This document shows positions 12,985 to 61,272 of a stretch of 64,000 bases of DNA, piece by piece. The notes below the pieces were generated by a model. The model was not told the origin of the DNA, made no database searches, and worked only from the letters and a program-made list of their open reading frames with translations. Source of the DNA: Lachnospiraceae bacterium (lineage in GTDB: Bacteria; Bacillota; Clostridia; Lachnospirales; Lachnospiraceae); the NCBI GenBank assembly GCA_017460485.1, contig JAFUAW010000037.1:5195-69194 (forward strand), written 5' to 3'. A program made the position numbers and the translations under genes. Every line of letters starts with the position of its first letter. Within the stretch, counting starts at the first letter, position 1.

Positions 12985-13677
12985 CTATACGATCTCTAGT
13001 GTCTCGATCAGGCTCTCCATGCCGTGTCCCGGAAAGACTATCGTTCCCTCCGGAAACGCTTCCAGTATCGGTTTGGTAATATTCTTGTATGCCGCTTTAT
13101 CGCCGCTTGGAAGACGTGTGATCACCTTCGCTCCTTGTACCAGACTATCTCCGGAGAACAGATATGTCTTCTGATCCGACTTCACAACGATACAGATGCT
13201 CCCCGGTGAATGCCCCGGGGTCTCAATGAGTTCAAACTGAATCCCCTGCCAGACAAGCTCATATCTGCCCGTAAATCCGACATCCACCTCACAGCTGTAC
13301 TGACCGCCGAACAATTCCTGCGCCTGCTGAACTTCATCATCCGAGCGTCCTATAAAGATTGCCATAAAATATGCGGAAAGATTCTTATCCGGTATCGGAA
13401 CCATCTGTTTACAGGTATCACTGCCATACACCGTGCAATCGGTGATCAGCTCCCGAACCGCATTCACACCGGATATGTGGTCATAATGTTCATGTGTCAA
13501 GATCATTGTTACTCTTTGAATCCCCTGATCTTCCAACATGCGGAAAGCTTCCTCCGATACATGCGGATCAATGATCAGAGCTTCATTCCCACTAAGGATC
13601 ATATACATATTCGAATGAATGACCGGCATGTCATATTGGTAAACGATCCTATCATCCAGCTTATATTGACATATCAT
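12985..13677 (-). CDS. MBL-fold metallo-hydrolase
   Basis: The THEHYDHISG (HxHxDH) metal-binding motif and a later GHSPGS. The start overlaps the upstream stop in an ATGA junction. Confidence 0.8.
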   Translation of the reverse strand: MICQYKLDDRIVYQYDMPVIHSNMYMILSGNEALIIDPHVSEEAFRMLEDQGIQRVTMILTHEHYDHISGVNAVRELITDCTVYGSDTCKQMVPIPDKNLSAYFMAIFIGRSDDEVQQAQELFGGQYSCEVDVGFTGRYELVWQGIQFELIETPGHSPGSICIVVKSDQKTYLFSGDSLVQGAKVITRLPSGDKAAYKNITKPILEAFPEGTIVFPGHGMESLIETLEIV

Positions 13678-15260
13678 CTGATCTCTACCTTCTCAATCCT
13701 ACAGGTGTGTTGCTTCGTGTCCGCATCATAATTCACACCCACTAACAAAATATCCCCACCATAACCTTCCAATACAGACGGATACTTCTTTTCTTTGATC
13801 TGCGCGATTGCGCCGTCCTCTGTCTGGTTCCATTTCAGTTCGATCACGAAAACCGGATAGGCAGAATCCTTTTGGGGATAATAGACAAGATCTGCATATC
13901 CTTTTCCGGACGGTAATTCCTCAAACTTCAAAAAATGATCCCAATAACTGAAATATGCTAATTTGATCACACTTCTTAGTGCCTGCTCATTATTATAGAA
14001 TAACGATGTCGTCTCGTCATCATGAACCTTCTCGATTTGAGCAGCTACAGCCTGCTCATTCATATGAATGGTATTCTCGATCAGCTGATCGCTATCCTGT
14101 ACACGCTGTATCGTTTCCGAATGCTCCACTTCCCGAATCGTACGCGCAAATTCAACCCGAATCTCTTCATTCGGAATCCGAACCGTTGAGCTTGCCTCAT
14201 CGTATGCCAGATACCCAAAATGAATAAGCAGTGTAAGAACATCATCCTTACTTCGGAAGGATACCAGATCATTATCAAAACCATCCGGATCGATCTTAAT
14301 CCGAATTCCACCGATCAATTCCGCAACTGCCTTTGCCAATCCCTGATAATCCATACTTACATACTTAAGCAGTGATTCTGATGCCGAAGTCTTGCACCAA
14401 TATGATCTGTAATTCTTAGTACGCATCACTTCCATGATGGCAAATGGATTATAGATGGATCCCACCTGCGGGAAATAATAACCGTCATACCACCGCTTCG
14501 TCTCTTCAAAATCCATCTGATTCTTCTCGCAAAGATCCCGAACCTCTTCTTCGGTAAATCCGACAAATTCCTGATATTCGTCCGGATACAGCATGGTATA
14601 CTCCGTAAAATCAGACAGGGCGGACTGTGAGCCATCCTTCTTGATCGGCAGGATTCCTGTCATATAGACACCATCAAAGATCCGGTCGGTCGTACCGCTC
14701 CCCTTAAATAGCATTCGAAGGAAATCCAGATATTTTTTCTGGACAGAAAAGTCCGTCCTGCTATCACGTATCAAGGCATCCCATTCATCAATGATCGCGA
14801 TGAATTTGTTGCCCGTATACAGAGTTGTATTCAATAACGTCTCATCAAAGGAATGCCCCGCCTTAACATCCGGATAACTCTCCATCAACTCAGCTGTAAC
14901 AGTTTTCTGAATAAACGGGACGATATCTGCCCCGGAAGCCTTCCCCATAATATTAGTCATATCCAGATATATCACATCATAATGATTCAAATGCTCCAAA
15001 TATGTCGCAGAATATCTCTCATCCGTTGCAATCTTCAGATCATCAAATAACACATGAGAATCACAGGTCTTATCATAATAGGCGCATAACATCTTTGCCG
15101 CATATGATTTTCCAAATCTGCGAGGTCTGCTGATAAAGATCATCTTTCTCTTTGTCCCGATCGTCTTATTCATTACCCCCAGCATTCCTGTCTTATCGAT
15201 ATATGTTCCCTTACATATCGCAGAAAAGCCTTCATTCCCCGGGTTCAGATATACTCCCAT
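13674..15260 (-). CDS. Predicted AAA-ATPase fused to a PD-(D/E)XK nuclease-like domain
   Basis: MGVYLNPGNEGF...YIDKTG...SRPRRFGKSY (P-loop) at the N-terminus. The C-terminus ...GYADLVYYP...VFVIELKW resembles PD-(D/E)XK (DUF1703-like). I prefer the ATG at 15260 over the TTG at 15296. Confidence 0.65.
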   Translation of the reverse strand: MGVYLNPGNEGFSAICKGTYIDKTGMLGVMNKTIGTKRKMIFISRPRRFGKSYAAKMLCAYYDKTCDSHVLFDDLKIATDERYSATYLEHLNHYDVIYLDMTNIMGKASGADIVPFIQKTVTAELMESYPDVKAGHSFDETLLNTTLYTGNKFIAIIDEWDALIRDSRTDFSVQKKYLDFLRMLFKGSGTTDRIFDGVYMTGILPIKKDGSQSALSDFTEYTMLYPDEYQEFVGFTEEEVRDLCEKNQMDFEETKRWYDGYYFPQVGSIYNPFAIMEVMRTKNYRSYWCKTSASESLLKYVSMDYQGLAKAVAELIGGIRIKIDPDGFDNDLVSFRSKDDVLTLLIHFGYLAYDEASSTVRIPNEEIRVEFARTIREVEHSETIQRVQDSDQLIENTIHMNEQAVAAQIEKVHDDETTSLFYNNEQALRSVIKLAYFSYWDHFLKFEELPSGKGYADLVYYPQKDSAYPVFVIELKWNQTEDGAIAQIKEKKYPSVLEGYGGDILLVGVNYDADTKQHTCRIEKVEIR

Positions 15261-15285
15261 GTTCAAATCTCCCATAAGTATACAA

Positions 15286-15313
15286 AATGGTGTCAACCAA
15301 TGTTGACACCATT
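15286..15313 (-). terminator. Rho-independent terminator candidate ending the left transcription unit
   Basis: A perfect 12-bp stem AATGGTGTCAAC / GTTGACACCATT with a 4-nt loop, followed on the minus strand by TTTTGT. It lies about 235 nt downstream of the methyltransferase stop. Confidence 0.5.
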
Positions 15314-23648: not shown

Positions 23649-24410
23649 TCATCCTCCATTCTTAATATGCCGTACATCACCAAGCATGCCACTTGACATC
23701 GGTATATGCGCTCCGGTGATATATTTCGCCTTATCTGAAAGTAAATATTCAATCAAATAAGCAACGTACTCCGGTTCAATCATTCCCATAGCATTTTCAT
23801 GTTCTATCTTCATCTCTTGGAGCATTGGCGTATTCACATAGGCAGGCATGATTGAGTTCACCCGAATTTCTCTGCGAACAAATTCCTTTGCCATTATCGT
23901 AGTATACGTATTGATCAAGGTCTTCGCTCCGGTATAAGCTGCCATTCCTCTTTTCTGGATTATTACTGACATGGAGGACATTCCCACTATACTTGCACCT
24001 CTGTTGGAATATTCTTTCCTTGCCATATATTTCCCTAGCATCAAATACGAGTTAGCGTGTACATCAATCATATCTTCCAGTATATCCGGCTCCATCTCTT
24101 TTACCGGAAGATTATTTGAATATCCTGCGCAATGCACCAGTCCGTCCAACATAAGATTACATTCCTTGCAATATATAAAGATATCTTCTATCCGATCCAG
24201 ATTCTTAAAATCGTAAATATAATATCTGGCATTCTCCCCCAATTCATTTACCAGCTTCTTTAATCTTTCTTCATTTCTTGCCACCAGAATTACATTATAG
24301 TGTTGTTCCGTCAAATATCTGGCTGCAGCTTCGCCAATTCCCGATGATGCACCTGTTATCAATACATTCTTACTCATATCCATATTCTTCCTTTGCCTTT
24401 TATCTATCAT
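23649..24410 (-). CDS. SDR family oxidoreductase
   Basis: VLITGASSGIGEAAA and YTGAKT (YxxxK). An ATGA overlap links it to the upstream gene. Confidence 0.8.
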   Translation of the reverse strand: MIDKRQRKNMDMSKNVLITGASSGIGEAAARYLTEQHYNVILVARNEERLKKLVNELGENARYYIYDFKNLDRIEDIFIYCKECNLMLDGLVHCAGYSNNLPVKEMEPDILEDMIDVHANSYLMLGKYMARKEYSNRGASIVGMSSMSVIIQKRGMAAYTGAKTLINTYTTIMAKEFVRREIRVNSIMPAYVNTPMLQEMKIEHENAMGMIEPEYVAYLIEYLLSDKAKYITGAHIPMSSGMLGDVRHIKNGG

Positions 24411-25408
24411 TTAATATAATTAGGACGATCTTGATCACTCATGCCGCGATATATATGAGCGGAAGATTTATGAAAACTATGGAAGTCCAAATCTACATTC
24501 TTCAGTTCATATGGTTCAAAATAATTCGGAATAATATTAGTATCATCCCTTTTTCTTAAGGTAAAGCCGGCTTTGCTCATAATCTCTCCAGATATACCAT
24601 GACAATAGATATCTGTATATTCGCAATTATGATCTTCCATAAAACGATCTATTGCTGTCCCAAATCCGCATAATGCCTGATCATCACCCAAATAATCCAC
24701 AATTCGAAAAACAATATGTCCATTAACAGCAATAAACCTGCCGATAACAGCCCCTTTATACTGTTCATTTCCTATTCGAAGCACTTCATATTGATAATAT
24801 GGATGTTCCTCATATCTGTGTTTGAGATATTCTTCACTCTCATACGGAACACGGTTCTGAAGAGAATCCCTATCCAACCATTCAAATATTTCATGAATAC
24901 AAGAAGATGTAATATAAGAACCTTGTTCGTTTGCAGGTATTATTATTTTATTTTCGATTTTTGCTACATAATATTTGTCCAGGTCTCTTAATCGATAGTA
25001 CTGCTGCAATTCGCCCATACAGTCTGGTGTCAGAATCTGCAATGCTTTTGCATAACGTTTTTCAAATCCAATACCAATAACATCCTGTACTCCCGGCATA
25101 TTTTCACAGTAATTGTCCAGTTCAAAGCTTAAATTGGAGAATTCACGATTCTTCTTAGTACATACCATTACAGTCGATATATATCTATTGGAAAGGTCAT
25201 AAGACATCGGGATATAACCAACGCTGCCATAGATTTGACCATCTTCTATATCCTCACCAAGGATATAGAAGACTTCTCCATTCCGTACGTGCTGCCACTC
25301 AAATAACTTACGGTCTCGTGCCAGAATATGATCCTTTTTCCAATAGATATCGATGAATTCCATAATCCTGGGAATATCTTCATATACTGCTCTTCGAATT
25401 GTAATCAT
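24407..25408 (-). CDS. GNAT-like N-acyltransferase-type two-domain protein (first gene of the left operon; paralog of 26989..27999)
   Basis: The N-terminus MITIRRAVYEDIPRIMEFIDIYWKKDHILA is GNAT-like. The protein is colinear with 26989..27999 down to the C-terminal DQDRP motif. The exact family was not recognised. Confidence 0.5.
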   Translation of the reverse strand: MITIRRAVYEDIPRIMEFIDIYWKKDHILARDRKLFEWQHVRNGEVFYILGEDIEDGQIYGSVGYIPMSYDLSNRYISTVMVCTKKNREFSNLSFELDNYCENMPGVQDVIGIGFEKRYAKALQILTPDCMGELQQYYRLRDLDKYYVAKIENKIIIPANEQGSYITSSCIHEIFEWLDRDSLQNRVPYESEEYLKHRYEEHPYYQYEVLRIGNEQYKGAVIGRFIAVNGHIVFRIVDYLGDDQALCGFGTAIDRFMEDHNCEYTDIYCHGISGEIMSKAGFTLRKRDDTNIIPNYFEPYELKNVDLDFHSFHKSSAHIYRGMSDQDRPNYIK

Positions 25409-25435
25409 ATATCCGCCTCAATTTCAGCTTTATAC

Positions 25436-25467
25436 AAAAAAAGCAGAAGAAATCTCTATCCTGCTTT
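25436..25467 (-). terminator. Terminator/attenuator-like hairpin in the left-operon leader
   Basis: On the minus strand, AAAGCAGGA-loop-TTCTGCTTT (9 bp including one G-U pair) is followed by a T7 run. It lies between IR-L and the start codon at 25408. The stem is weak. Confidence 0.3.
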
Positions 25468-25472
25468 AAAAA

Positions 25473-25498
25473 GAATCGCGCCTGTCCAAGGCGGACTT
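25473..25498. repeat. IR-L: left copy of the perfect 26-bp inverted repeat GAATCGCGCCTGTCCAAGGCGGACTT
   Basis: It is the exact reverse complement of 26908..26933. Identity ends abruptly on both sides. Confidence 0.9.
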
Positions 25499-25519
25499 TA
25501 AAAAATGATAAACAAAAAT

Positions 25520-25537
25520 AGTTATATCCATATAACT
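25520..25537. repeat. 18-bp palindrome AGTTATAT-CC-ATATAACT inside the switch
   Basis: A perfect 8-bp dyad with a 2-bp centre, about 22 nt inside IR-L and downstream of the outward promoters. Confidence 0.6.
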
Positions 25538-25614
25538 GAATACAACTTTCCCGAAAACTATTTTTGTCTACATCCCTGCACCATTTTGTCGTCCTCCTTG
25601 ACTAACTACATAAT

Positions 25615-25641
25615 ATATCGGCATTCCTTTTAAAATACTTA
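25615..25641 (-). promoter_or_regulatory. Sigma-28 (SigD/FliA)-type promoter TAAG-N15-GCCGATAT facing the left operon
   Basis: The -10 element matches the Bacillus SigD consensus GCCGATAT at 8 of 8 positions. The -35 is TAAG, as at the fliC and flaG promoters in this window. Confidence 0.6.
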
Positions 25642-25654
25642 ATCTAATAAAAAA

Positions 25655-25684
25655 AGAATAGCACATAAAATAAGTGTATGTCAA
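25655..25684 (-). promoter_or_regulatory. Sigma-A-like promoter TTGACA-N18-(TGC)TATTCT facing the left operon
   Basis: A consensus -35, an 18-nt spacer and a TG extended -10 with a 4-of-6 hexamer. It lies immediately upstream of the sigma-28 motif. Confidence 0.4.
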
Positions 25685-25817
25685 TGAATTGAACATATTG
25701 TTAAAGGCAAACGTGCACAATAAACGCTGATTCTATTTCCTTTTCGGAAATTGAAGTGTTAAATATAGTATTTGGTTCACAGCAGCCATAATACAATAGA
25801 AGAAAAGAGGAATAATC

Positions 25818-26909
25818 ATGAATAATCAATCAACTAATCTATCTATCCAACTTCAATTTTTGAAAGACCCGACATGCATGACGTTGTCAGATTATGCCGA
25901 GCAATGGCTTACCATTTATGCCGCCAAACATTTGGAGCGAACGTCCTATATCCGATATGAACAGGTTATCCATTATAATATTCTTCCATATCTGGGGGAC
26001 ATGTCGATCTCAGAGATTAAGCCTTATCACTTGGAATGCTTTTTTTCAACACTTTCCGAACAGGACCTCAGATATGACGGTCATACCGGCGGATATTCTC
26101 ACGGTACGCTATGTAAAATAAAGACTGTTTTATCATCTATGTTTTCAACAGCAGTACAATGGGAATTGATAGAGCATAATCCCTGCAGTAAAATCAAGCT
26201 TCCAAAACGCACAGACATTAAATCTATTAAGTGCTATACAGCAGAACAAATGAAAAGCTTTATCGAATTTCTGTATGATATATATTCCTGCTCGAATGCC
26301 ATGCAATATCAATATTTGGTACTTTATTTGATTGCAATTTACGGCGGCCTCAGAAGAGGCGAATTACTGGGACTGACATGGGAAAAAGTAGATTATACAA
26401 CCGGTACCATCTATATTAATCAGACAATCAATCGAGTGGATGGAAGTTATCTGATCAAATCTCCCAAAACAAAAAGTTCCGTTCGAATAGTAACTTTGCC
26501 TCTTTCTGTTATGAATATTCTTCGCATATATCAGATAAAGCAGGATAATTATCGAATTCAAATGGCAGATGGCTGGCAGGGAAACAATTGGTTATTTATT
26601 CAGAAAAACGGCACTAATATGAGCATCGGAACTCCCTATGCTAAATTCCGTCAATTGATCAAATTATATAATCAGCAAACCAACGCTACTATATATCTTC
26701 CAGAGCTCGGACTACATAGTTTAAGACATACAAACGCATCTCTGCTTATAAGTTCCAATCTCGTTGATGCCCAGACTGTCGCACACAAGTTAGGGCATTC
26801 AAATGTAACAACTACTATGAAATATTACATTCATGCGTATGAGGAAAACGAGAGGAAGACAGCTGCGGTGTTGGAAGAAGTATTACATTTGCCGGGGAGT
26901 AATATATAA
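25818..26909 (+). CDS. Tyrosine site-specific recombinase (phage-integrase family)
   Basis: An N-terminal SAM-like core-binding domain and a catalytic domain with all signature residues in context: GGLRRGE (Arg), HSLRHT (His-x-x-Arg), LGHSN (His) and MKYYIH (Tyr). Confidence 0.85.
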   Translation: MNNQSTNLSIQLQFLKDPTCMTLSDYAEQWLTIYAAKHLERTSYIRYEQVIHYNILPYLGDMSISEIKPYHLECFFSTLSEQDLRYDGHTGGYSHGTLCKIKTVLSSMFSTAVQWELIEHNPCSKIKLPKRTDIKSIKCYTAEQMKSFIEFLYDIYSCSNAMQYQYLVLYLIAIYGGLRRGELLGLTWEKVDYTTGTIYINQTINRVDGSYLIKSPKTKSSVRIVTLPLSVMNILRIYQIKQDNYRIQMADGWQGNNWLFIQKNGTNMSIGTPYAKFRQLIKLYNQQTNATIYLPELGLHSLRHTNASLLISSNLVDAQTVAHKLGHSNVTTTMKYYIHAYEENERKTAAVLEEVLHLPGSNI

Positions 26910-26933
26910 GTCCGCCTTGGACAGGCGCGATTC
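26908..26933. repeat. IR-R: right copy of the 26-bp inverted repeat
   Basis: AAGTCCGCCTTGGACAGGCGCGATTC overlaps the recombinase stop codon by 2 nt. Confidence 0.9.
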
Positions 26934-26988
26934 AATATCTTGTATAAAGAAAGCTGTTTTGTGTACCGGTTTTGGTTGGAACAAATAT

Positions 26989-27999
26989 ATGATTACAATT
27001 CGAAGAGCAGAATTTGAAGATATTCCACGAATAATGGAATTCATAGATACTTACTGGAAAAAAGGGCATATTTTGGCAACGAACCGCTCTTTTTTCGAGT
27101 GGCAGTTCGCAGATGAAGGTATGGTTAATTTAGTTCTGGCAGAAGATAAAACAGCTCAACACATTTATGGAATAAATGGTTATATAAGATATAATCAATC
27201 AGCAACACCCGATATAACAGGTTGTATGTGGAAAGCTCTTAAGACCATTGAATATCCTATGCTCGGATTGAATTTTGGAGAGATTTTATATCAAACTACA
27301 CATGCCAGATATAACATAGGCATAGGATTGAATTCCAGGTCACGACAATACGAAAAACTCAATGGTGCATATGTTGCAAAAATGAATCATGCATACAGAT
27401 TAGGTAATTCAAAAGATTTTCATATTGCTGATATCAAGGATTTTAAAAATAATCCTTATAAAAAAACAGAAAGCAAACTGGAATCAATCACATCTATAGA
27501 ACAATTCAAAAAAAGAATTCCTGTTAGTTTGTTGAGCAGTATTATCCCATACAAAGATTATTATTATATAGAACATAGATACTTCAAACATCCTATATAC
27601 AACTATAATTTATATTCACTAATAATATCCGGGAAACCGATTCCAGCAGTTTTTGTTGTTCGGGAAATCACCGCCCTCGGAAGAAAATGCGCTAAAATCG
27701 TTGATTATTTTGGTGAAGAAAAATGGATCGGACATTCAGGAAAAGCAATTGATGAACTTATTTCTCTTAATAATTATGAATTCATCAGTTTTTACTGTTT
27801 GGGGATCGACAACTCTTACCTGAAAGAAAGCGGCTTCTCTTTCATTGAGGAAAACGATATAAATATCATACCATGTTATTTTGAACCTTTTGAAAAGAAA
27901 AATATTGATATTTATGCTGTTATGATTCCTGAAATCAAGGAAAAAACAAGATTGTTCCTTGGGGATGGTGATCAAGACAGGCCAAGCAAAATTACATAG
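26989..27999 (+). CDS. GNAT-like N-acyltransferase-type two-domain protein (first gene of the right operon; paralog of 24407..25408)
   Basis: MITIRRAEFEDIPRIMEFIDTYWKKGHILA. The first 22 nt are identical to the left paralog. The track start at 26833 would run through IR-R and the recombinase 3' end, so I rejected it. Confidence 0.5.
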   Translation: MITIRRAEFEDIPRIMEFIDTYWKKGHILATNRSFFEWQFADEGMVNLVLAEDKTAQHIYGINGYIRYNQSATPDITGCMWKALKTIEYPMLGLNFGEILYQTTHARYNIGIGLNSRSRQYEKLNGAYVAKMNHAYRLGNSKDFHIADIKDFKNNPYKKTESKLESITSIEQFKKRIPVSLLSSIIPYKDYYYIEHRYFKHPIYNYNLYSLIISGKPIPAVFVVREITALGRKCAKIVDYFGEEKWIGHSGKAIDELISLNNYEFISFYCLGIDNSYLKESGFSFIEENDINIIPCYFEPFEKKNIDIYAVMIPEIKEKTRLFLGDGDQDRPSKIT

Positions 28000-28015
28000 A
28001 AGGGGAGATAATAAA

Positions 28016-28819
28016 ATGAAAATTGCTGAAATTTTGGAATTATGTAATTCAATTAAACGAGAGAAAAAAAAATATTATACCAATTATTATATGACCTATA
28101 ATTCTTCTGACAGTGACTTCATAGTAATACAGAATGAGGGGACAATTGTGTTTCTTGTTAAAGAAGAGTTTTTTTACAGATGCTTTTTCTTAAGCAATAA
28201 TCTAGAAACCCTGATAAAGTGTTTATCAGAAGTTCCCCAAGACTCAATTCTGGATTTTATCGAAAAAGCAGAGAATTGTTCTTTACTGAATACATTTCAG
28301 AAATCAGGATTTAATTCCTACGCGACATACCTAAGGGTATCATCCCCTATCCCACCGAAACCTTATAAAAAAGATAAAATTGAACTATTGTGTGAGAAAC
28401 TATATAACGATAAGCTTGGACAGCGCGCCACGGAATCAGACATTCCTCAATTACGTCAGATATTTCTGGATGTATTTGATGTGAACTGTGATGGAATTTT
28501 AACGGTAGAAAAACTAAGGCGCTCTATACAAAACGGGACAGTTTGGATTTATAAAGCAGATGAAAAAATCTGTACAGTATACATATATCAGGTAGAGGGT
28601 AAAAAGCGCTATGGTAATTTAACTTATAATTGTCTCAGTGCAGATTATTTATATAGTGTATGCAGAAAAGCAAATGAATTATCAGCCAAAGAGCACGATT
28701 TTATTCTTCACTACGGATGGGTTAATGAAAAAAATAAAAAAATAGGACGTACATTAAACACAACCAGTGCGCAGGGATACGACGGTGTCCGCAACTATAT
28801 CTTTCGAAAGGAGAATTAA
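28016..28819 (+). CDS. Hypothetical protein (possibly an acyltransferase-fold protein)
   Basis: MKIAEILELC follows a GGGGAG RBS. I recognised no secure motif. Confidence 0.3.
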   Translation: MKIAEILELCNSIKREKKKYYTNYYMTYNSSDSDFIVIQNEGTIVFLVKEEFFYRCFFLSNNLETLIKCLSEVPQDSILDFIEKAENCSLLNTFQKSGFNSYATYLRVSSPIPPKPYKKDKIELLCEKLYNDKLGQRATESDIPQLRQIFLDVFDVNCDGILTVEKLRRSIQNGTVWIYKADEKICTVYIYQVEGKKRYGNLTYNCLSADYLYSVCRKANELSAKEHDFILHYGWVNEKNKKIGRTLNTTSAQGYDGVRNYIFRKEN

Positions 28820-28821
28820 AA

Positions 28822-29040
28822 ATGAACGAAAAGGAAAAACTGGAAATCATCGCAGAAAGTGTTGAAATGGAGACAGAGGAATTATCAAAGGAGATGGTTC
28901 TGGAAGATCTGGAAAACTGGGATTCTGTTGCAGTATTAACAATAATTGCAGCCATTAGCGACCGACTAGGCCGTTATCCCAGTGCTCAAGATATACTGGC
29001 ATTCAGAACAGTTGGCGATTTGATGAATTACATGGACTAA
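28822..29040 (+). CDS. Acyl carrier protein
   Basis: A 72-aa acidic protein with LENWDSVAVLTIIA (Ser attachment context). Confidence 0.7.
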   Translation: MNEKEKLEIIAESVEMETEELSKEMVLEDLENWDSVAVLTIIAAISDRLGRYPSAQDILAFRTVGDLMNYMD

Positions 29041-29088
29041 ATGCTGATTGGCAGTTGCAAAAAGGTAATTGGATTTAAGGTGATACGT

Positions 29089-29838
29089 ATGGAACTTTTA
29101 AAAGACAAAGCTATTATTGTGACAGGCGCATCTTCCGGACTGGGAAGATCAACTGCTATTGCAATCAGCAAAGAAGGCGGTCGCTTAATTCTGATCGGTC
29201 GAGACGAAACAAGGCTGTCCGAAACTAAAAACATGCTCGAATATTCTGATAACCATATTGCCATTCCTTTTGATTTATTAGAATTCGAAAAATATGACCA
29301 ATTATTTCAGAGAATCAAAGAAGAAAATATTATATTAAATGGAATGGTTCATTGTGCCGGTTTTACAAGAATACTGCCTATTAGGGCTTTAACCACACAG
29401 AATATGAATGAATTACTTGCCATTCATTATATTTCCTTTGTAAATCTTGTCAAATTCTATTCTAAAAAAGGAATGAATGCTGGAGGAAGTATTGTTGGAA
29501 TTTCTGCAATCAATGCTCACATACCGCAGAAATGCATGACTGCATATGCCTCTGCAAAGGCAGCTATGGAGACTGCATGCCGTACAATGTCCATTGAATT
29601 AATCGAAAAAAATATTCGGATTAACTCTGTCGTTGTTGGCAGCATGAGTACGGAAATGTCTAAAGATGTAGCCAGTTCAATAGAAGGAGTATCTTCTTCT
29701 TATGTCAATCCTGTTTCAAGACAGCTGATTCCAACTGTAACTGCAGACGTGATTTCCGGATCAATTATGTTTTTGTTAAGCGATTTGTCATCTTATATGA
29801 CCGGAAGAGAATTATATGCGGATGGAGGTTTATTATAA
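29089..29838 (+). CDS. SDR family oxidoreductase
   Basis: AIIVTGASSGLGRS and YASAKAA (YxxxK). The ATG at 29089 follows an AAGGTG RBS. Confidence 0.8.
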   Translation: MELLKDKAIIVTGASSGLGRSTAIAISKEGGRLILIGRDETRLSETKNMLEYSDNHIAIPFDLLEFEKYDQLFQRIKEENIILNGMVHCAGFTRILPIRALTTQNMNELLAIHYISFVNLVKFYSKKGMNAGGSIVGISAINAHIPQKCMTAYASAKAAMETACRTMSIELIEKNIRINSVVVGSMSTEMSKDVASSIEGVSSSYVNPVSRQLIPTVTADVISGSIMFLLSDLSSYMTGRELYADGGLL

Positions 29839-30689
29839 TGAAACACGATGGAAACAAAGTTATTTTTCATACGAACAAAGGTGTCATTACATATAATGAT
29901 ATAGTTTCTGCATTATATAGGCTTGGGGCCGATCAATGCGATGTATTATTTGTTCATTCAGATATTTCATTTGGACAATTAGATCCTTCTGTCAAAAGGA
30001 AAGAGTTAAAAGAACTACTGCTGGATGCGTTAATGGAAATGAATGTAAAAACTCTTATGTTTCCTACATTTACTTTTAGTTTTTGCAACAAAGAAGACTA
30101 TGATGTTGAACATTCTGTTACTGCCATGGGCATGCTGCCTGAATATGTCAGGAACCGAGAGGATGCATATCGAACCGATGATCCCATTCTTTCTGTAGCA
30201 ATAATCGGAGACCGCTCAGGCTTTGAAAAAATGATAGGACGCTCTTCTTGCGGAACAGGAGGAATCTTTCATCAACTTCATATCAGCGGCAAGAAAGTAA
30301 AATTTCTATTCTTTGGAACTTTGGTAACTCACTGCTTCACTTTTATGCATTATATTGAAGAAATAAAACAAGTGCCCTATCGATATGCACGCCCATTTGA
30401 TGGAACCATTATTCAAAATGGCATTCAAACTCCGAAAACCGTGGATGTATATGTTCGGTATAAGGATGTAGGAGCAACATTACCTAAAGATTTTACATCC
30501 TATATGTTAGAACATGAGATCATGAAGAAAGAGGAATTGGGTATGTCCTCCATTTCAATTGTAGATGAAAGAAGCAGTTATGAGTATATTTGTTCATTAA
30601 TTGATCATGATCCATATGTATTTTCTGTTTTACCTGAAGACGGAGAATTAGTAAAAGAATATAAATATGGCAATATCGTTTCAATGTGA
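29838..30689 (+). CDS. AAC(3)-family N-acyltransferase-like protein
   Basis: The N-terminus (ITYNDIVSALYRLGADQCDVLFVHSDISFGQL) and length match my recollection of the aminoglycoside 3-N-acetyltransferase fold family. The context suggests an amino-sugar N-acyltransferase. Confidence 0.5.
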   Translation: MKHDGNKVIFHTNKGVITYNDIVSALYRLGADQCDVLFVHSDISFGQLDPSVKRKELKELLLDALMEMNVKTLMFPTFTFSFCNKEDYDVEHSVTAMGMLPEYVRNREDAYRTDDPILSVAIIGDRSGFEKMIGRSSCGTGGIFHQLHISGKKVKFLFFGTLVTHCFTFMHYIEEIKQVPYRYARPFDGTIIQNGIQTPKTVDVYVRYKDVGATLPKDFTSYMLEHEIMKKEELGMSSISIVDERSSYEYICSLIDHDPYVFSVLPEDGELVKEYKYGNIVSM

Positions 30690-30702
30690 GAAAGGAAAAA
30701 TA

Positions 30703-30933
30703 ATGAGAGAAACAATACTTAATATATTAAAAGATATCAGACCTGAATTTGATTTTGAAAGCAGTAATAACTTTATTGAAGACGGCTTTTTGGATTCATT
30801 TGATGTCGTTACAGTCATTTCAGAATTAGAATTAAAATACAATATTGTAATTGATGGTCTAGCAGTTATTCCCGAAAACTTCGAATCATTAGATTCCATT
30901 TGTGAGCTGGTAAAAAAGAGTGGTGAAAAATAA
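30703..30933 (+). CDS. Carrier protein, DltC-like
   Basis: A 76-aa protein with EDGFLDSFDVVTVISELE. The LDS(F/L)D context is typical of D-alanyl and peptidyl carrier proteins. Confidence 0.65.
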   Translation: MRETILNILKDIRPEFDFESSNNFIEDGFLDSFDVVTVISELELKYNIVIDGLAVIPENFESLDSICELVKKSGEK

Positions 30934-31991
30934 TGGATTTTCATTTTCAAAACAAACAGATTACCGGTGTATTATCAATTCTTCCGGAAACAGAATACCG
31001 CATGGAAGATGAAGTTATAGATCCCAACGACAGCAAGGTAAAAAGATTGCAGAAGGTGATCGGATACGGTTCTCGCCGCCGGGTAAAAGGCAATACCTGT
31101 ATGTCTGATTTATTATTATATGGACTACGGCATTTAATCAGCTCCCAGCAACTCAATCCGGATGATATAGGTGCTATTATTGTATCCACTCTCTGCGAAG
31201 ACTATTTGTTACCGTCCCTTGGTTGTATATTGCAAGGCGAGCTGGGTTTAGAAAATGATGTATATTGTATGGATACACCACAGGCTTGTGCCGGATATGT
31301 AACAGGATTAATTCATGCCTTTTTACTGCTAGATCATATGCCTAATAAAAAGGTCATTGTATGTACAGGAGAAATCTTAAACCGTAAATCCGATCCAAAT
31401 GAAGCAAAATATGAACATCCATCCTTTGGAGGTGATATTGCTAATATTACCATAGTAGAGAATTGCCATTCTTCTCGGGATATCTATGCAAATTATTTCA
31501 CAGACGGAAGCAGACGTAATGCCTTAATTATTGAAGACGGTGGTTTTCGTAATCCAATGACAGCAGAAAAACTTAAAATGCAGACAAATAATCTTCCATG
31601 TATGGGAGTATCTATGGATGGTTCCGGGGTGTTTAATTTTGTTCAGAAAGAAGTTCCTCCCTCTATCTTTGAACTTTCAAAACAAGCCGGTGTCACAGTA
31701 GATGACATCGATTGGTTTTTATTCCATCAGCCGAACAAATTTATGCTCCAAAAATTGGCAGGTGCATTAGGAGTTCCTTTCAGAAAAGTACCTATGAAAC
31801 TGACAGAAACACTTGGCAATTCCGACTCAGGTACAATTCCTGCTATTATGACTACTGAAGCGGCAGATTCTTTGTTATCCCATAATAACTTATGTTGTCT
31901 ATCCGGATTTGGAGGCGGTCTTACGTGGACCTCTATTATTATGGACATCGGCAATTTAGACTTTTGTGAATGTATCACATCCGACTTATAA
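30933..31991 (+). CDS. 3-oxoacyl-ACP synthase III-like
   Basis: PQACAGY, FHQPNK and LGNSDSGT give an intact Cys-His-Asn context. A TAATG junction links it to the upstream gene. Confidence 0.75.
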   Translation: MDFHFQNKQITGVLSILPETEYRMEDEVIDPNDSKVKRLQKVIGYGSRRRVKGNTCMSDLLLYGLRHLISSQQLNPDDIGAIIVSTLCEDYLLPSLGCILQGELGLENDVYCMDTPQACAGYVTGLIHAFLLLDHMPNKKVIVCTGEILNRKSDPNEAKYEHPSFGGDIANITIVENCHSSRDIYANYFTDGSRRNALIIEDGGFRNPMTAEKLKMQTNNLPCMGVSMDGSGVFNFVQKEVPPSIFELSKQAGVTVDDIDWFLFHQPNKFMLQKLAGALGVPFRKVPMKLTETLGNSDSGTIPAIMTTEAADSLLSHNNLCCLSGFGGGLTWTSIIMDIGNLDFCECITSDL

Positions 31992-32037
31992 ATATCATTA
32001 TTACTATATTAAGCAACACATATCAAGGGAGCTAATT

Positions 32038-33564
32038 ATGAAAAAAAATTGGATTGATGTTTTTCAAAAAACAGTAGAAAAATATAAGGATGCCATCGCG
32101 GTAGTGCACAATAACAAGTCTGCAACTTTTGGAGAAATCCGGCATCGCGCATTATGTATTGCAGCCGAGTTAAACAGCAGGGCAGACGAAATTAACCGCC
32201 CTATAGTAGTACTTCTGCCCAAATCAATAGAAGTAATTTATGCAAATATTGGTATTATGTATAATCATAATATCTTTTCCAATTTAGATGTAAAAATGCC
32301 CAAGGAACGTCTAGGTAATATTTTGAACTGCCTAAAGCCAATTGGCATCATTACAGATACGAATGGATTAAACTTAGTCGATATTAATCCCGACATGTTT
32401 GTTATAAACTTAGACCACATGGATTGGAATTATAATTATGATATTAACTCTATTCTCTGTAAGTTAGAAAAACAAATTGATACTGATCCCTTTTGTATCA
32501 TTAATACATCCGGCTCAACCGGGACGCCAAAAGGCGTGGTACTGAATCACAAAAGTTTTTTCGATTTTATGGACTGGTCTTTAGATGTATTCCATTTCAC
32601 ATCTCAGGACATTATTGGCTCTCTCTCTCCCGTAATATTTGATATATATGAATATGAACTAACCTTAATGATGACAGTCGGTGCAAAAATCGTTTTATTA
32701 GATGCGGGATTGGCAGTTTTTCCGGCTAAACTTATATCAGCTGTAGCTGAACATAAAGTTACATTCATGTTCTGGGTTCCTACGATTATGGTTAATATTG
32801 CCAATATGGATATACTGTCAAGAATACCTCTCCCTTCTGTCCGTACCATCTGGTTTGCCGGAGAAGTATTTCCTACAAAACAATTTAACTATTGGAAATG
32901 TAACTTACCGGAAACTGTATTTGCCAACCTATATGGTCCCATTGAAATCACTCTTGACTGTATCTATTATATTGTCGATCGTGATTTTAATGATCAGGAT
33001 ACATTACCAATCGGTATACCATGCAAAAATACTGACATTTTACTCTTAAATGACTCTGATCAGATATGTCAATCTGACGAAGAAGGCGAAATCTGTGTTA
33101 GAGGAACTTCCCTTGCAATGGGATACTACAATAATCCAGAAAAAACATCTGCAGCATTCGTTCAAAATCCATTAAACAATTCGTACCCTGAATTAATCTA
33201 CCGAACAGGAGATATAGGAGTAAAGTCTTCCACAGACAATCTTATTTATTTCAAGGGAAGAAAAGATAGCCTAATCAAACACATGGGATATAGAATTGAA
33301 CTGTCGGAAATAGAACATATTATGGTAAATGAATTGAAAATTGTAAAAAACTGTTGTGTTATCTACAATTCTTCTAAAAAGGAGATACATGTTTTTTATG
33401 AAAAGAAAGAATTAAGCACTAGAGAAATGCGGGATAAGCTTTTATCAGTTCTTCCTAAATATATGATCCCGACAGTTTGGACAGAGTTAGATGAATTACC
33501 AAGAAATACGAATGGTAAAATTGACCGGCATAAACTCAGTTGTATATCAAATAACAAAGAATAA
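32038..33564 (+). CDS. Adenylation enzyme, DltA / NRPS A-domain-like (amino acid or aryl acid--carrier protein ligase)
   Basis: NTSGSTGTPKGV, GYYNNPEKT, YRTGD, GRKDSLIKHMGYRIELSEIE and PRNTNGKIDR. The ATG at 32038 follows an AAGGGAG RBS. Confidence 0.75.
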   Translation: MKKNWIDVFQKTVEKYKDAIAVVHNNKSATFGEIRHRALCIAAELNSRADEINRPIVVLLPKSIEVIYANIGIMYNHNIFSNLDVKMPKERLGNILNCLKPIGIITDTNGLNLVDINPDMFVINLDHMDWNYNYDINSILCKLEKQIDTDPFCIINTSGSTGTPKGVVLNHKSFFDFMDWSLDVFHFTSQDIIGSLSPVIFDIYEYELTLMMTVGAKIVLLDAGLAVFPAKLISAVAEHKVTFMFWVPTIMVNIANMDILSRIPLPSVRTIWFAGEVFPTKQFNYWKCNLPETVFANLYGPIEITLDCIYYIVDRDFNDQDTLPIGIPCKNTDILLLNDSDQICQSDEEGEICVRGTSLAMGYYNNPEKTSAAFVQNPLNNSYPELIYRTGDIGVKSSTDNLIYFKGRKDSLIKHMGYRIELSEIEHIMVNELKIVKNCCVIYNSSKKEIHVFYEKKELSTREMRDKLLSVLPKYMIPTVWTELDELPRNTNGKIDRHKLSCISNNKE

Positions 33565-33584
33565 TATTGGCAATAGGAATTACT

Positions 33585-34448
33585 ATGCGTTTTGAAAAAA
33601 TAATTGTTATCGGAACCGGAAAAATAGCATGCAGCTGTATAGAATCATTGGTTTCTATCCTATCTAAGGAGAGGCTGTGTGCGCTTGAAGTATATAAGCA
33701 GTCATTATCCATGTTAAACAAAATATGCGCCATGCACAGTATTGAGTATTTGGAGCTAATCCAAAGAAATGATATTCATGCATGGCTTAAAGAGTATACC
33801 CGTAACTGTAGTGTATTAATTATCAGCGCAAATAACCGTTATATATTTCCTCCGGAGTTTATTAATGAGAAAAATATAGAAATAGTTAATTTTCATTACT
33901 CATTGCTCCCGGCATATAGAGGAATGAATATACCAACATGGGTTATTTTCAATAATGAAAGCCAGACAGGGATAACCTGGCATTATATTACACAGCACAT
34001 TGATCAGGGAAAAATAATATCCCAAAAATCTATAGATATTAATCCTACAACAACTGCGTTCGATATTACAAGAATGGGGATGCAGTTAGGCGCGGATTCT
34101 TTCCGTGAGTTTATTGGAGAACTTCTGAACCATCATATCAACGGTATCGAGATAAACAGCACAAACAACGATAGAATATACTATAAATCGGATCTTCCAA
34201 TGAATGGATTTTTAGATATAAATGCTTCAATGGATCATATCGACAGATTACTCCGCAGTTTTGATTATGGGGGGCTTCCTTTAGTACCCAGATTACAAAC
34301 TGTTGTTAATGATATGCTTTATTGCGTAAACAAATATCAAATAAAGAGTACTACTCTCTTCGTTCAGCGTCAAATTACAGTATCTGACTGTATTTTCTCA
34401 ATTTCTGAAGGAAACAAAACAATTATTCTTTTCTGCAGCCATATATAA
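33585..34448 (+). CDS. Formyltransferase-domain protein (Fmt/ArnA N-terminal-like)
   Basis: VNFHYSLLPAYRGMN plus a later HIDQGKII give the Asn-His...Asp formyltransferase signature. Confidence 0.65.
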   Translation: MRFEKIIVIGTGKIACSCIESLVSILSKERLCALEVYKQSLSMLNKICAMHSIEYLELIQRNDIHAWLKEYTRNCSVLIISANNRYIFPPEFINEKNIEIVNFHYSLLPAYRGMNIPTWVIFNNESQTGITWHYITQHIDQGKIISQKSIDINPTTTAFDITRMGMQLGADSFREFIGELLNHHINGIEINSTNNDRIYYKSDLPMNGFLDINASMDHIDRLLRSFDYGGLPLVPRLQTVVNDMLYCVNKYQIKSTTLFVQRQITVSDCIFSISEGNKTIILFCSHI

Positions 34449-39011: not shown

Positions 39012-40874
39012 TCATAAATTACCCAAACCATTAGCCATCTTTTCCAGGGTTCTTAATGACTCTTCCCACATTGGAATAGCTTCTTCCAACGCAAGACCAA
39101 TTTCCTTCATGTGTTCATGAATCATATGATATAAATGAATCCTCATTTTCAAAGAATCTTCTTCTTTCTCATCCAGTCCATCAGCCATATTTATATTGGT
39201 TTCTGCAGCGCGTTCCAGCATCATTTCATATAGTTTCATAGACTCAATTTCATTCAAAAGGTGATCTATCCTTCTCTCAATTTGAGCAAATTCACTCTCA
39301 GAATAATTCGCTCGCTGCGCTAATTTCAATGCCCGGTCAGAGCTCATGATCGCCTCGTCTACCAAACGTTTCATATTTTTCAGATCTCTCAGACCTTCTT
39401 TTAGATCCTGATAATACTCTTTTCTGGCATCCTCTGTTTCCCATAATCGCGGAAGAGACTGCCAAACTTTATCGCAATCAAATTCGTGTGTACAATACTT
39501 CATTACCGCCTCTTGAAATGGCATTTGTACTGCTCCGGCAAGTTTAGCGCCACCCTCTGTCGCATTAATAATTGTATGATTCTTAGAGAATTGCTCTATT
39601 GTTCTGGCATACCAATCGATATATAATCGAAAATCTCCCGATGCCCATACTTTATCTCCATAGTATCCTTCTACTTCGTAAAGAGTATAGCGCATCAGAT
39701 CTTCTTCCGTAGCTTTGCCCCGGCCTGCATGGAACTCCATATTGGTAAATGCCAGATCCTGCCCTATAATGATAATTGTTCGGAATCCGAGTTCTATCGC
39801 CAACCGGAATAATACTGTAGCCACAGATCCGCCAACATCCAAGTTTAAAAAATGATGTCCCGTCTTAGATATTAGATAATCATAATAACTGGCTGTATTC
39901 ATAAAATATAATGGTTCAAATACATCCAACGCTTCCAGCATAGATGCACTGGAGATGGTTGAAAGAAAAACCGGCAGCCCTTTGATTCGCTCATCTTGGA
40001 AATGTATCGCACTTTTTTCAGCATCCACAGTACATGTATAATCCGGTCGTATTCCTTGATCCAGCAAATACTTCAATGCCGAATCAACGGCAAATATGCA
40101 TGATTTCCCCTTCGCTTCATGCAGATATTTTACATTCTTTTCCAATGACGGTCCATTCGCAACCAGAATACATGGGATATCTTCTGGAAAACGCCCAACC
40201 ATTTCATCAACAGCATAACTATTCAAAAGCCACCTCTGCGCCTTGATCTCATTACGCAATCCGCTTTGAGCAAAATCAATCACTGTCTGCATAGAACCTT
40301 TCCCCGAAAGCAGGCAGTTCATATACCATTCATAAGATCTCTGCAGCTGTTCCGGGAATATACGGTTATAGACAGGCAGGGAAATTATTGCAAACGTTTT
40401 CCAATTCATATAGTTCACTCTGCTCTGAATAATATTATCGGCATTACGATCATTGAGATCCTGAATGATCAGAGAAATATTAGGAGAATCAAGAATATCC
40501 CTGACATCATATTCACGAAGGACTGTCAGAAATATATCTTTACTTGGCTCATAAATAATGCATTGCCGTATCGGACAATCTTCTGAAAGAATTCTTCGTA
40601 CAATCTGACCATCGCCAAAGCCAAACAATAGAATTGTTGTAGATTCGGGTAAATGATTAAATGCCTCCACATATCTCTCCGCTGCATGCTGAGGATGATA
40701 CATACTGGTCAAAGATATAATATTCTCACCTTCTGCTTTAGCTATAAACTTTTCTCCATCCAATGCATCACCAATCATTATGGAATCACAATTCGTGTTC
40801 TCTTCCGAAAGCGACCGATACAAATTCACATCATGTTTTTGGATTACCTGCATATTATCTTCGTATATTGCCAT
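39012..40874 (-). CDS. Maf (DUF115) family protein (paralog 2 of 5)
   Basis: MAIYEDNMQVIQ..., ILVANGPSLEKN, FAVDSA, GGSVATVLF, IIIIGQDLA and NATEGGA. Confidence 0.85.
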   Translation of the reverse strand: MAIYEDNMQVIQKHDVNLYRSLSEENTNCDSIMIGDALDGEKFIAKAEGENIISLTSMYHPQHAAERYVEAFNHLPESTTILLFGFGDGQIVRRILSEDCPIRQCIIYEPSKDIFLTVLREYDVRDILDSPNISLIIQDLNDRNADNIIQSRVNYMNWKTFAIISLPVYNRIFPEQLQRSYEWYMNCLLSGKGSMQTVIDFAQSGLRNEIKAQRWLLNSYAVDEMVGRFPEDIPCILVANGPSLEKNVKYLHEAKGKSCIFAVDSALKYLLDQGIRPDYTCTVDAEKSAIHFQDERIKGLPVFLSTISSASMLEALDVFEPLYFMNTASYYDYLISKTGHHFLNLDVGGSVATVLFRLAIELGFRTIIIIGQDLAFTNMEFHAGRGKATEEDLMRYTLYEVEGYYGDKVWASGDFRLYIDWYARTIEQFSKNHTIINATEGGAKLAGAVQMPFQEAVMKYCTHEFDCDKVWQSLPRLWETEDARKEYYQDLKEGLRDLKNMKRLVDEAIMSSDRALKLAQRANYSESEFAQIERRIDHLLNEIESMKLYEMMLERAAETNINMADGLDEKEEDSLKMRIHLYHMIHEHMKEIGLALEEAIPMWEESLRTLEKMANGLGNL

Positions 40875-40899
40875 TTAGTTTCCCTTCTTTTATTCACTA

Positions 40900-49057: not shown

Positions 49058-49080
49058 ACCCAATCCTCACTTTTCTTAAC

Positions 49081-49114
49081 ATATACAAATAAAGCCGGTC
49101 AATATGACCGGCTT
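49081..49114 (-). terminator. Rho-independent terminator downstream of fliC
   Basis: AAGCCGGTC-ATATT-GACCGGCTT (9-bp GC-rich stem) followed by TATTTGTATAT on the minus strand. It lies 20 nt after the fliC stop and about 25 nt before the next start codon. Confidence 0.7.
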
Positions 49115-49133
49115 ATTTGTCGTAATCCGAAGA

Positions 49134-49937: not shown

Positions 49938-50001
49938 AATAATTCCTCCTTGAATATACTGTCGCGTCCTTGCGACATTTACTAGAAGTCCTTTGGACTT
50001 C
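49938..50001 (-). promoter_or_regulatory. fliC 5' leader with CsrA-type binding sites
   Basis: The minus-strand hairpin TGTCGC-AAGGAC-GCGACA (49960..49977) presents GGA in its loop. The SD AAGGAGG (49946..49952) offers a second GGA site. A third hairpin, GAAGTCC-AAA-GGACTTC, lies at 49985..50001. Confidence 0.55.
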
Positions 50002-50041: not shown

Positions 50042-50067
50042 ATATCGGATGTTTTATCCGATACTTA
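50042..50067 (-). promoter_or_regulatory. Sigma-28-type promoter of fliC (TAAG-N14-TCCGATAT)
   Basis: The -10 matches GCCGATAT at 7 of 8 positions, about 100 nt upstream of the fliC start. Confidence 0.6.
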
Positions 50068-53785: not shown

Positions 53786-53812
53786 GTATCGACAGACCAC
53801 CTTAATATCTTA
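53786..53812 (-). promoter_or_regulatory. Sigma-28-type promoter candidate for flaG-fliD-fliS (TAAG-N15-GTCGATAC)
   Basis: A 6-of-8 match in the -10 element with correct spacing, in the csrA-flaG intergenic region. Confidence 0.45.
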
Positions 53813-60913: not shown

Positions 60914-61201
60914 TTAGATTGCATACTGTTCATAGGTTGATAACAATTTTTCGGCAAAGCTTTCATTGCTGACATTGTAATTACCGCTCTGAATCTTTGC
61001 CTTCAGCTCAGCTACACGGTCCTCGCGGATATCCGGAACATTCTGAAGCGCAGTCTTCGCAATATGCATATCCTTACCAATAGAAGAAAAAGATACTTGA
61101 TCTGTACTGGAAACACCGCTGGTATAACCTGTCTTCCCTGACTTGTTCGTTCTACCGACGCCGTATATCTGGTTGATCTGATTATAAGCATCTATACGCA
61201 T
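60914..61201 (-). CDS. flgM: Anti-sigma-28 factor FlgM
   Basis: ...DQVSFSS...REDRVAELKAKIQSGNYNVSNESFAEKLL is the FlgM C-terminal signature. The ATG at 61201 follows an AAGGAGGAAGG RBS. Confidence 0.85.
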   Translation of the reverse strand: MRIDAYNQINQIYGVGRTNKSGKTGYTSGVSSTDQVSFSSIGKDMHIAKTALQNVPDIREDRVAELKAKIQSGNYNVSNESFAEKLLSTYEQYAI

Positions 61202-61245
61202 AACAGCCACCTTCCTCCTTGAAATAATATTCTTCTATACAATAT

Positions 61246-61272
61246 TTATCGTCAGATTTCAGTTTTACTTTA
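61246..61272 (-). promoter_or_regulatory. Sigma-28-type promoter candidate for flgM (TAAA-N15-GACGATAA)
   Basis: A consensus -35 TAAA, a 15-nt spacer and a 6-of-8 match in the -10 element, about 45 nt upstream of the flgM start. Confidence 0.45.

Follow-up and report, generated by a model that had tools for sequence, protein, structure and literature searches.

A short DNA segment in the genome of a gut or rumen Lachnospiraceae bacterium raises the question of whether a moving flagellar promoter can decide which of two neighboring operons is expressed. The segment lies in a 64-kb stretch of a metagenome-assembled genome (MAG) of this organism (hereafter, "the window," meaning the whole stretch analyzed), which includes the NCBI proteins MBQ8982348 and MBQ8982350 (IJ079_02070 and IJ079_02080). 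It is bounded by a left and a right inverted repeat (IR-L and IR-R), encodes a tyrosine recombinase, and carries a predicted promoter of the sigma-28 (SigD/FliA) type with a sigma-A-like promoter in tandem directly upstream; coordinates are collected in Table 1. Our analysis indicates that the segment probably acts as an A/B toggle, directing the sigma-28 promoter at one of two divergent operons.

The invertible segment proposed in the preliminary description is borne out by perfect 26-bp repeats at both ends. Its 319-bp noncoding part, back to back with the recombinase gene, holds both promoters, which, as had been claimed, lie inside the segment and point outward across IR-L toward the left operon (ATG at 25408). 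The recombinase has a complete catalytic set (R179, K214, H300, R303, H327, and Y337) and presumably catalyzes the inversion. It belongs to the tyrosine type (Phage_integrase) and not to the serine recombinases of the Hin/Gin class.

The segment really inverts, as both orientations are present in public assemblies. A 129.6-kb ENA contig (L001) encodes an identical recombinase, and its 1-kb flanks are each 100% identical to those of the window; the segment between them is inverted, the breakpoints lying exactly at the repeats. The flipped orientation was also found in L087 (ENA ERZ1029112), so that the anticipated inverted state, with the same promoters facing the right operon (ATG at 26989), exists in both loci. 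A reading of the recombinase as the integrase of a mobile element was rejected, since the segment inverts precisely between identical flanks. Coexisting orientations usually break an assembly at the repeats, leaving contigs that run from repeat to repeat; a 1,461-bp contig detected in four samples (L002) runs exactly so. In L087, the recombinase gene is interrupted after LRHTNASLL (window position ~26762) by an insertion sequence (IS; L087:1-1500, DDE transposase of 429 amino acids), which removes H327 and Y337. Judging from the lost residues, L087 is a natural locked variant whose promoters face the right operon.

We next consider whether the sigma-28 motif is likely to be a promoter. When the minus-strand sequence was reread, both motifs sat exactly where they had first been placed. 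Compared with the sigma-28 consensus quoted in PMC3865298 and PMC3720852 (−35 TAAA and −10 GCCGATAT/W, ~15 nt apart), TAAG-N15-GCCGATAT matches 11 of 12 positions. In a scan with TAAA-N14-16-GCCGATAT allowing up to two mismatches, the site at 25641-25615, with a single mismatch, outranked every other match in the 64 kb; the promoters of fliC and flgM had two mismatches each. This agrees with the claim that the switch site matches better than the promoters of fliC, flaG, and flgM, which are themselves as the preliminary description gave them. The exact pattern used there occurs once in the window, compared to 0.01 occurrences expected from shuffled sequences. A broader pattern, TAAR-N14-16-[GT]CCGATA[TA], has exactly two matches, the fliC promoter and the switch site, a count only modestly above the 0.40 matches per window obtained in a first-order Markov simulation [P(≥2) = 0.06].

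The frequency of this family pattern in the window speaks for the view that the motif is a chance match, or an accessory site of the recombinase, in A/T-rich DNA, with the operons driven from elsewhere. We consider this very unlikely, since only ~0.001 matches are expected in the 319-nt noncoding stretch on the outward-facing strand, and since the motif is conserved across three lineages and recurs in nonorthologous cassettes with other repeats and another position relative to the recombinase gene. Nor was any promoter-like site detected in the gaps between the repeats and the start codons (64 and 55 nt). With no promoter detected beside the repeats for either operon, only one operon is expected to be strongly expressed per cell, and the orientation of the segment would change the expression of the adjacent genes.

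The sigma-A-like site cannot be validated in the same way. Sites resembling sigma-70 promoters were found 10 times in 2 kb, compared to 8.0 ± 2.9 expected; because such matches occur at chance frequency, the site as a pattern is not distinguishable from chance. Its support stems from conservation. A search of 5.8 billion proteins yielded only one close relative of the recombinase, P0002 (78% identity). Its contigs also break at the repeats: L004 runs exactly from repeat to repeat, and L003 stops inside the 5′ portions of the flanking genes, which are homologous to those of the window. Upstream of the sigma-A-like −35, as far as the recombinase ATG, the window and L003 are 47% identical; identity then jumps abruptly at GAATTCATTGACA. 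L003 retains TTGACA and TGnTATTCT, its TAAG is replaced by TAAA (closer to the consensus), and GCCGATAT is replaced by TCCGATAT. The two spacers are unchanged in length but have diverged in sequence (10/15 and 13/18 identical). Motif positions are identical at 24 of 26 sites versus 30 of 44 elsewhere (Fisher p = 0.018), a difference that is not very specific because the whole leader, from 25614 to 25499 down to IR-L, is also conserved (89% identical). In the poorly conserved region, a 9/12 sigma-70-like match is all that faces the recombinase gene. The suggestion that this gene has at best a weak promoter of its own is thus plausible rather than settled.

A third lineage, L086, is without the switch. 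This 24-kb Logan contig (SRR33674965) is without the recombinase and the first seven genes of the right operon (window positions 26989-34448), and a left-type operon is fixed beside NeuB behind the same promoter and leader (L086:7553-8000). TAAG-N15-TCCGATAT is intact there and the repeat survives as a relic with four substitutions, while the sigma-A −10 has decayed from TATTCT to T-TTTT. On this comparison, the sigma-28 promoter is what was kept where the switch is gone. The sigma-28 motif is also kept in L087. Conserved elements with varying spacers were found in L003, L086, and L087, as well as in the second cassette family described below.

These comparisons bear on the possibility that the switch is real and the sigma-A-like promoter (TTGACA-N18-TGnTATTCT) does the work, the sigma-28 motif being minor or nonfunctional. 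The −35 is perfect, the spacer ends in TGTGc, corresponding to the Gram-positive TRTG/extended −10 motif, and all this is kept in L003; tandem promoters are also known for Butyrivibrio fliC, which has dual sigma-28/sigma-43 (sigma-A) promoters (PMC3720852), and the second-family locus L140 has a sigma-A-like TTGACT-N17-GATAAT between its two sigma-28 motifs. However, the −10 matches at only 4 of 6 positions, the 18-nt spacer is long, matches of such quality are no more frequent than chance, and in the fixed relative L086 this −10 has decayed beside an intact sigma-28 motif. The element common to all independent cassettes is the sigma-28 motif, not the sigma-A site. A leading role of the sigma-A-like promoter therefore seems unlikely.

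Other relatives of the recombinase were rejected as switches. In a scan of GTDB genomes with an alignment of the recombinase and its relatives, the best match was 44% identical and flanking repeats were found in 0 of 80 loci. The proteins found in this way are integrases of the ordinary kind, and none of the species representatives contains the switch of this species. P0003 (52% identity, L005) was also rejected, since it has no flanking repeats.

Transcripts starting at the predicted promoters would carry a leader with features of its own. A strong Shine-Dalgarno (SD)–like AAGGAGG precedes an eight-codon small open reading frame (sORF; 25584-25558, MVQGCRQK) that is 100% conserved in L003 and broken in L086, and a long hairpin of 79 nt (25577-25499) has a predicted energy of −21.8 kcal/mol (z = −5.2). 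Beyond IR-L, a second, terminator-like hairpin has an energy of −8.6 kcal/mol in the window and −12.1 kcal/mol in L003, with a compensatory change from A-U to G-C; the right junction (26934-26988) has no counterpart. Terminator-like hairpins thus stand between the promoter and the left operon only, a point absent from the preliminary description. They may terminate read-through from the recombinase gene in the flipped state and so serve as an insulator. An Rfam scan of 25300-27100 (E ≤ 10) returned only noise (let-7 and tsr24) and no known riboswitch or leader, and an exact-pattern scan of JGI metagenomes aimed at the conserved leader gave no match. The leader also contains a mini-hairpin, GUC-AAGGAG-GAC, and a 10-mer, TCAAGGAGGA, identical to the SD region of fliC (49945-49960); fliW is also present in the window. 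Speculatively, the leader could be a CsrA site or a 5′ stabilizer.

Such a leader could mean that the promoters mainly make a short RNA or the eight-codon peptide and that operon expression is set by conditional read-through, that is, by attenuation, possibly involving CsrA or the ribosome. The conserved SD-like sequence and sORF, the z score of the long hairpin, the terminator-like hairpins at IR-L and 25436-25467, the latter with its compensatory change, and the identity of TCAAGGAGGA to the fliC SD region all fit this explanation. We nevertheless regard it as quite unlikely. The sORF is broken in L086, whose transcripts must pass the leader and hairpin before the sole operon copy; no terminator is present at the right-hand junction; cassettes of the second family lack a leader of this kind; and no Rfam family matches it. 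Complete termination at the hairpins is incompatible with L086, where they precede its single copy of the operon. Attenuation would, moreover, modify the toggle model rather than replace it.

Further support for the sigma-28 motif comes from a second, nonorthologous cassette family found by a metagenome search with the first operon gene. In its founding member, L105, a tyrosine recombinase only 23% identical to that of the window lies between 31-nt repeats of unrelated sequence (CCTTAAG...CTTAAGG), and the cassette is located between an operon led by a short-chain dehydrogenase/reductase (SDR) gene and a homologue of the first operon gene. All six cassettes examined beside acyl/acyl carrier protein (ACP) or glycan operons have TAAG/TAAT-N15-NCCGATAT just inside one repeat, pointing outward to acyl/ACP or glycan-modification operons (Table 1). 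The elements TTAAG...CCGATATA are constant across these cassettes, while the spacers all differ. As a background estimate, TAA[AGT]-N15-NCCGATAT occurs six times in 2.08 Mb of unrelated loci. L139 and L140 have opposite orientations between the same two operons.

The typical cassette of ~1.1 kb consists of a repeat, a TGtTATAAT promoter, a 326-amino-acid recombinase gene, the sigma-28 motif over its stop codon, and the second repeat. The second family differs from the window in its recombinase, in its repeats, and in where the promoter is placed (behind the recombinase gene and codirectional, rather than ahead of it and divergent), and its recombinase promoter is clear, unlike that of the window. 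The cassettes are found between divergent ACP, β-ketoacyl-ACP synthase III (KAS III), and SDR operons, and some carry a homologue of the first operon gene. Their recombinases are ~40% identical to those between opposed hsdS genes (L149-L152, P0254), which suggests that flagellar-glycan cassettes and hsdS shufflons share invertase ancestry; the hsdS-flanked clade (P0254) has no sigma-28 motif. The recombinase family is large, with dozens of members on contigs of ~1.1 to 1.2 kb; the one short contig examined, L152 (1,115 bp), encodes P0254 and is thus a member of the hsdS clade. Most of 51 loci with distant homologues of the first operon gene have no upstream sigma-28 motif, and the motif is therefore not general to that gene family. 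A candidate repeat pair in L104 was rejected, as it encloses no recombinase.

Two loci of the second family contain additional motifs. At L153:2590-2790, the relic 3′ end of a recombinase gene, TAAA-N14-GTCGATAT, and a degenerate repeat precede a 330-amino-acid homologue of the first operon gene; this looks like a decayed tandem cassette. At L155:1965-1991 (minus strand), an internal intergenic gap of the left operon contains a second sigma-28 motif, TAAGAAAAAACAATTTCTGTCCGATAT. This motif shares homology with the promoter of the cassette itself and may represent a relic promoter that has become fixed.

Overall, the sigma-28 assignment made in the preliminary description is supported, because the site is the best match in a window that contains flgM and genuine late flagellar promoters, is kept in L003 and L086, and recurs in independent cassettes. 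"Class III," the term used there for the late regulon, is enterobacterial terminology. The toggle model draws, in silico, on the anatomy of the segment, its inversion, the quality of the motif, its conservation, and its convergent recurrence. According to this model, in the sequenced orientation sigma-28 RNA polymerase would start near 25607 and proceed leftward, crossing a leader of ~200 nt and then IR-L before it enters the left operon; the sigma-A-like promoter may contribute basal transcription. Once the segment is inverted, both promoters would instead face IR-R, and transcription would cross it into the right operon. Expression would be tied to the FlgM/sigma-28 checkpoint and hence to the time of flagellin synthesis. 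The start site, the dependence on sigma-28, passage of the polymerase through the leader hairpins, and the biochemistry of the operon products are predictions of the model. Both operons encode ACP-dependent acyl-building enzymes, and the likely outcome would be a phase-variable, mutually exclusive acyl decoration of flagellin nonulosonic acid. The wiring has precedents: flagellar glycosylation genes of Clostridioides difficile decrease 11- to 50-fold in a sigD mutant (PMC3865298), and the sigma-28 consensus of Lachnospiraceae fliC genes is TAAA-N16-17-MCGATAa (PMC3720852).

Several points weigh against the toggle model. The −35 reads TAAG rather than TAAA, as it does at fliC and flaG in this genome; the window-wide motif count exceeds chance only modestly; and the conservation of the motif is shared by the leader around it. 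The cassette of the window is shared with only two other lineages (L003/L004 and L086), and the six cassettes of the second family count as approximately one further origin because they are homologous to each other. The sigma-28 gene itself (fliA/sigD) is absent from the 64-kb window, which, of the sigma-28/FlgM pair, contains only flgM. Three U-tailed hairpins (in the leader, at IR-L, and at 25436-25467 with U7) stand on the way to the left operon and may attenuate its transcription. Last, the role of the operons in modifying the flagellin glycan is deduced from gene context.

With more reserve than for the toggle itself, we lean toward a broader interpretation in which self-contained cassettes, each combining a recombinase with a sigma-28 promoter, are widespread in gut and rumen Clostridia, where they would toggle alternative ACP-dependent operons for acyl modification of flagellin nonulosonic acids in a phase-variable, FlgM-timed manner, and have arisen at least twice. 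The two apparent origins are one with the divergent integrase-derived recombinase of the window and one in the large hsdS invertase–related family, whose promoter follows the recombinase stop codon.

Table 1. Features of the switch locus, comparator genes and promoters in the window, and cassettes of the second family.
Feature	Position in window	Strand	Description
Invertible segment	25499..26907		1,409 bp, bounded by perfect 26-bp inverted repeats
IR-L	25473..25498		Perfect 26-bp inverted repeat, inversion breakpoint
IR-R	26908..26933		Perfect 26-bp inverted repeat, 2-nt overlap with recombinase stop codon
Tyrosine recombinase	25818..26909	+	363 amino acids; Pfam PF00589 and PF14659
Sigma-28 (SigD/FliA)–type promoter, predicted	25641..25615	−	TAAG 25641-25638, N15, GCCGATAT 25622-25615
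Sigma-A–like promoter, predicted	25684..25655	−	TTGACA 25684-25679, N18, TATTCT 25660-25655
Conserved leader inside segment	25499..25614	−	SD-like AAGGAGG 25599-25593, sORF, long hairpin
Terminator-like hairpin + U7	25436..25467	−	Between IR-L and left operon
First gene of left operon	24407..25408	−	333 amino acids; no known family
First gene of right operon	26989..27999	+	336 amino acids; paralogue of first gene of left operon
fliC sigma-28 promoter (comparator)	50067..50042	−	TAAG-N14-TCCGATAT
flaG sigma-28 promoter (comparator)	53812..53786	−	As in the preliminary description
flgM sigma-28 promoter (comparator)	61272..61246	−	TAAA-N15-GACGATAA
flgM (anti–sigma-28 factor)	60914..61210	−	TIGR03824, 53.4 bits versus cutoff of 40.75
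L105			Founding member; TAAG-N15-TCCGATAT between recombinase stop codon and repeat, outward
L139-L142			P0145; two copies of TAAG-N15-TCCGATAT with TTGACT-N17-GATAAT between copies
L143			P0174; TAAG-N15-TCCGATAT; first-gene homologue also in cassette
L153			P0160; TAAG-N15-ACCGATAT
L155			P0149; TAAG-N15-TCCGATAT; faced operon ends in NeuB
L147/L148			P0203, 50% identical; TAAT-N15-GCCGATAT; between two glycan operons

The flanking genes suggest what would be switched. The left operon extends to about 17118 and encodes SDRs, KAS III enzymes, ACPs, and an AMP-binding ligase. The right operon extends to 36810 and encodes an SDR, an N-acetyltransferase, a KAS III enzyme, an AMP-binding enzyme, a formyltransferase, NeuB, and a 2-epimerase. 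Searches of Pfam, NCBIfam, and PDB gave no relative of the first operon gene. The two first genes share 35% protein identity overall and are near-identical over the first ~40 codons, which suggests gene conversion. At the DNA level, these starts (positions 25292-25412 and 26985-27105) are 80% identical and constitute an outer, second inverted repeat that causes assembly breaks; L003 ends there.

Both operons are part of a very large flagellin glycosylation island that contains five Maf (MptE-like) proteins, GT2 glycosyltransferases, NeuB, a UDP-GlcNAc 2-epimerase, a PseB-like dehydratase (Polysacc_synt_2), and two CMP-sugar synthetases (CTP_transf_3). Its Maf, NeuB/PseB-type, and CMP-transferase genes adjoin fliC (49134-49937), and both switched operons probably modify the flagellin glycan, as judged from this gene context. 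The late flagellar genes of the window are flgM, flgN, two flgK-like genes, flgL, fliW, flaG, fliD, fliS, and fliC. The presence of flgM suggests a sigma-28 regulon in this genome, and sigma-28 motifs are located upstream of fliC, flaG, and flgM.

Some other features of the island were observed. The five Maf paralogues are located at 7889-9724 and 39012-46130, and synthesis genes of both the Pse type and the Neu/Leg type are present. The FlgN-like genes (50104-50583 and 60278-60793) and the FlgK-like genes (56375-58249 and 58395-60167) are duplicated. A predicted AAA-ATPase with a PD-(D/E)XK nuclease domain (13674-15296, minus strand) resembles an insertion with no role in glycan synthesis. 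Immediately downstream of fliC is a G+C-rich hairpin with a run of T residues (49063-49134). Since it leaves no space there for a promoter, the block of glycosyltransferase and Maf genes from 47495 down to 36812 may rely on read-through from the fliC sigma-28 promoter.

If the model is correct, flagellar surface chemistry would be phase-variable within clonal populations, and immune recognition, phage adsorption, and serology could be affected. Lachnospiraceae flagellins are prominent immune targets in the gut: flagellins of Roseburia and Eubacterium are proinflammatory (PMC3720852), and PMC13641668 deals with antibodies raised against bacterial flagellins in Crohn's disease. Because assemblies break at the repeats, yielding many repeat-to-repeat contigs of 1.1 to 1.5 kb, such switches are probably underrepresented in MAGs. 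The natural locked variants, that is, L087 with its IS-disrupted recombinase and the recombinase-less relative L086, provide ready-made test material. In our full-text literature search, we found no description of an invertible sigma-28 promoter controlling flagellin-glycan operons and no inverton or invertible promoter associated with flagellin glycosylation, Lachnospiraceae, or nonulosonic acid.

Several known systems share individual features with this locus. In the sap system of Campylobacter fetus, a single promoter is located on an invertible segment between opposed alternative surface-layer genes; the likeness is the A/B choice made by one moving promoter. Inversion there involves long homologous cassettes, is largely RecA-dependent, and selects S-layer proteins; to our knowledge, the segment has no dedicated recombinase and no sigma-28 wiring. 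The flagellar switch of C. difficile is a 154-bp element in the flgB leader that acts after transcription initiation; its recombinase is encoded elsewhere, and it turns the whole regulon ON or OFF. In our locus, in contrast, the recombinase gene is part of the invertible segment, what moves is the sigma-28 promoter itself, and the switch is of the A/B type. The two are alike in that a tyrosine recombinase (RecV in C. difficile) of a Firmicute inverts DNA and affects flagellar expression (PMC5386303), and in that flagellar glycosylation genes of C. difficile are SigD-dependent (PMC3865298).

The hsdS shufflon invertases of Type I restriction-modification systems recombine coding sequence and lack the sigma-28 motif. 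Capsular-polysaccharide invertons of Bacteroides are small, promoter-only elements flipped in trans by a global serine recombinase, each locus being turned ON or OFF; we know of no link between them and flagella through an alternative sigma factor. Like our locus, these invertons (Mpi) use promoter inversion for stochastic switching of surface-glycan operons in gut commensals (PMC12355684). A further likeness, to Campylobacter jejuni (maf and ptm), lies in the Maf-rich island and in phase variation of flagellin nonulosonic acid, although the mechanism there is slipped-strand mispairing at homopolymer tracts and not promoter inversion; PMC13317227 deals with the simple sequence repeat–mediated phase variation of this species.

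The closest analogue is the Hin/fljBA system of Salmonella, in which a recombinase-bearing invertible segment likewise carries the outward promoter of a late flagellar operon and inversion changes a flagellar surface antigen. The class 3 flagellar genes of Salmonella are sigma-28–dependent. fljB is listed among the class 3 genes (PMC3372961). Our locus works alike but is not a member of the Hin/fljBA family, because its recombinase is of the tyrosine type, while Hin belongs to the serine invertases and works with an enhancer bound by Fis. Hin switches ON and OFF, with the additional repressor FljA, and swaps flagellins; here, one promoter would serve two divergent operons, the cargo is probably glycan-modification enzymes rather than flagellin, and the host is a Firmicute, unlike Salmonella. 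The proposed A/B toggle, whose mobile part would be the promoter of an alternative sigma factor, would thus extend the century-old logic of Salmonella phase variation to Firmicutes, to tyrosine recombinases, and to posttranslational decoration.

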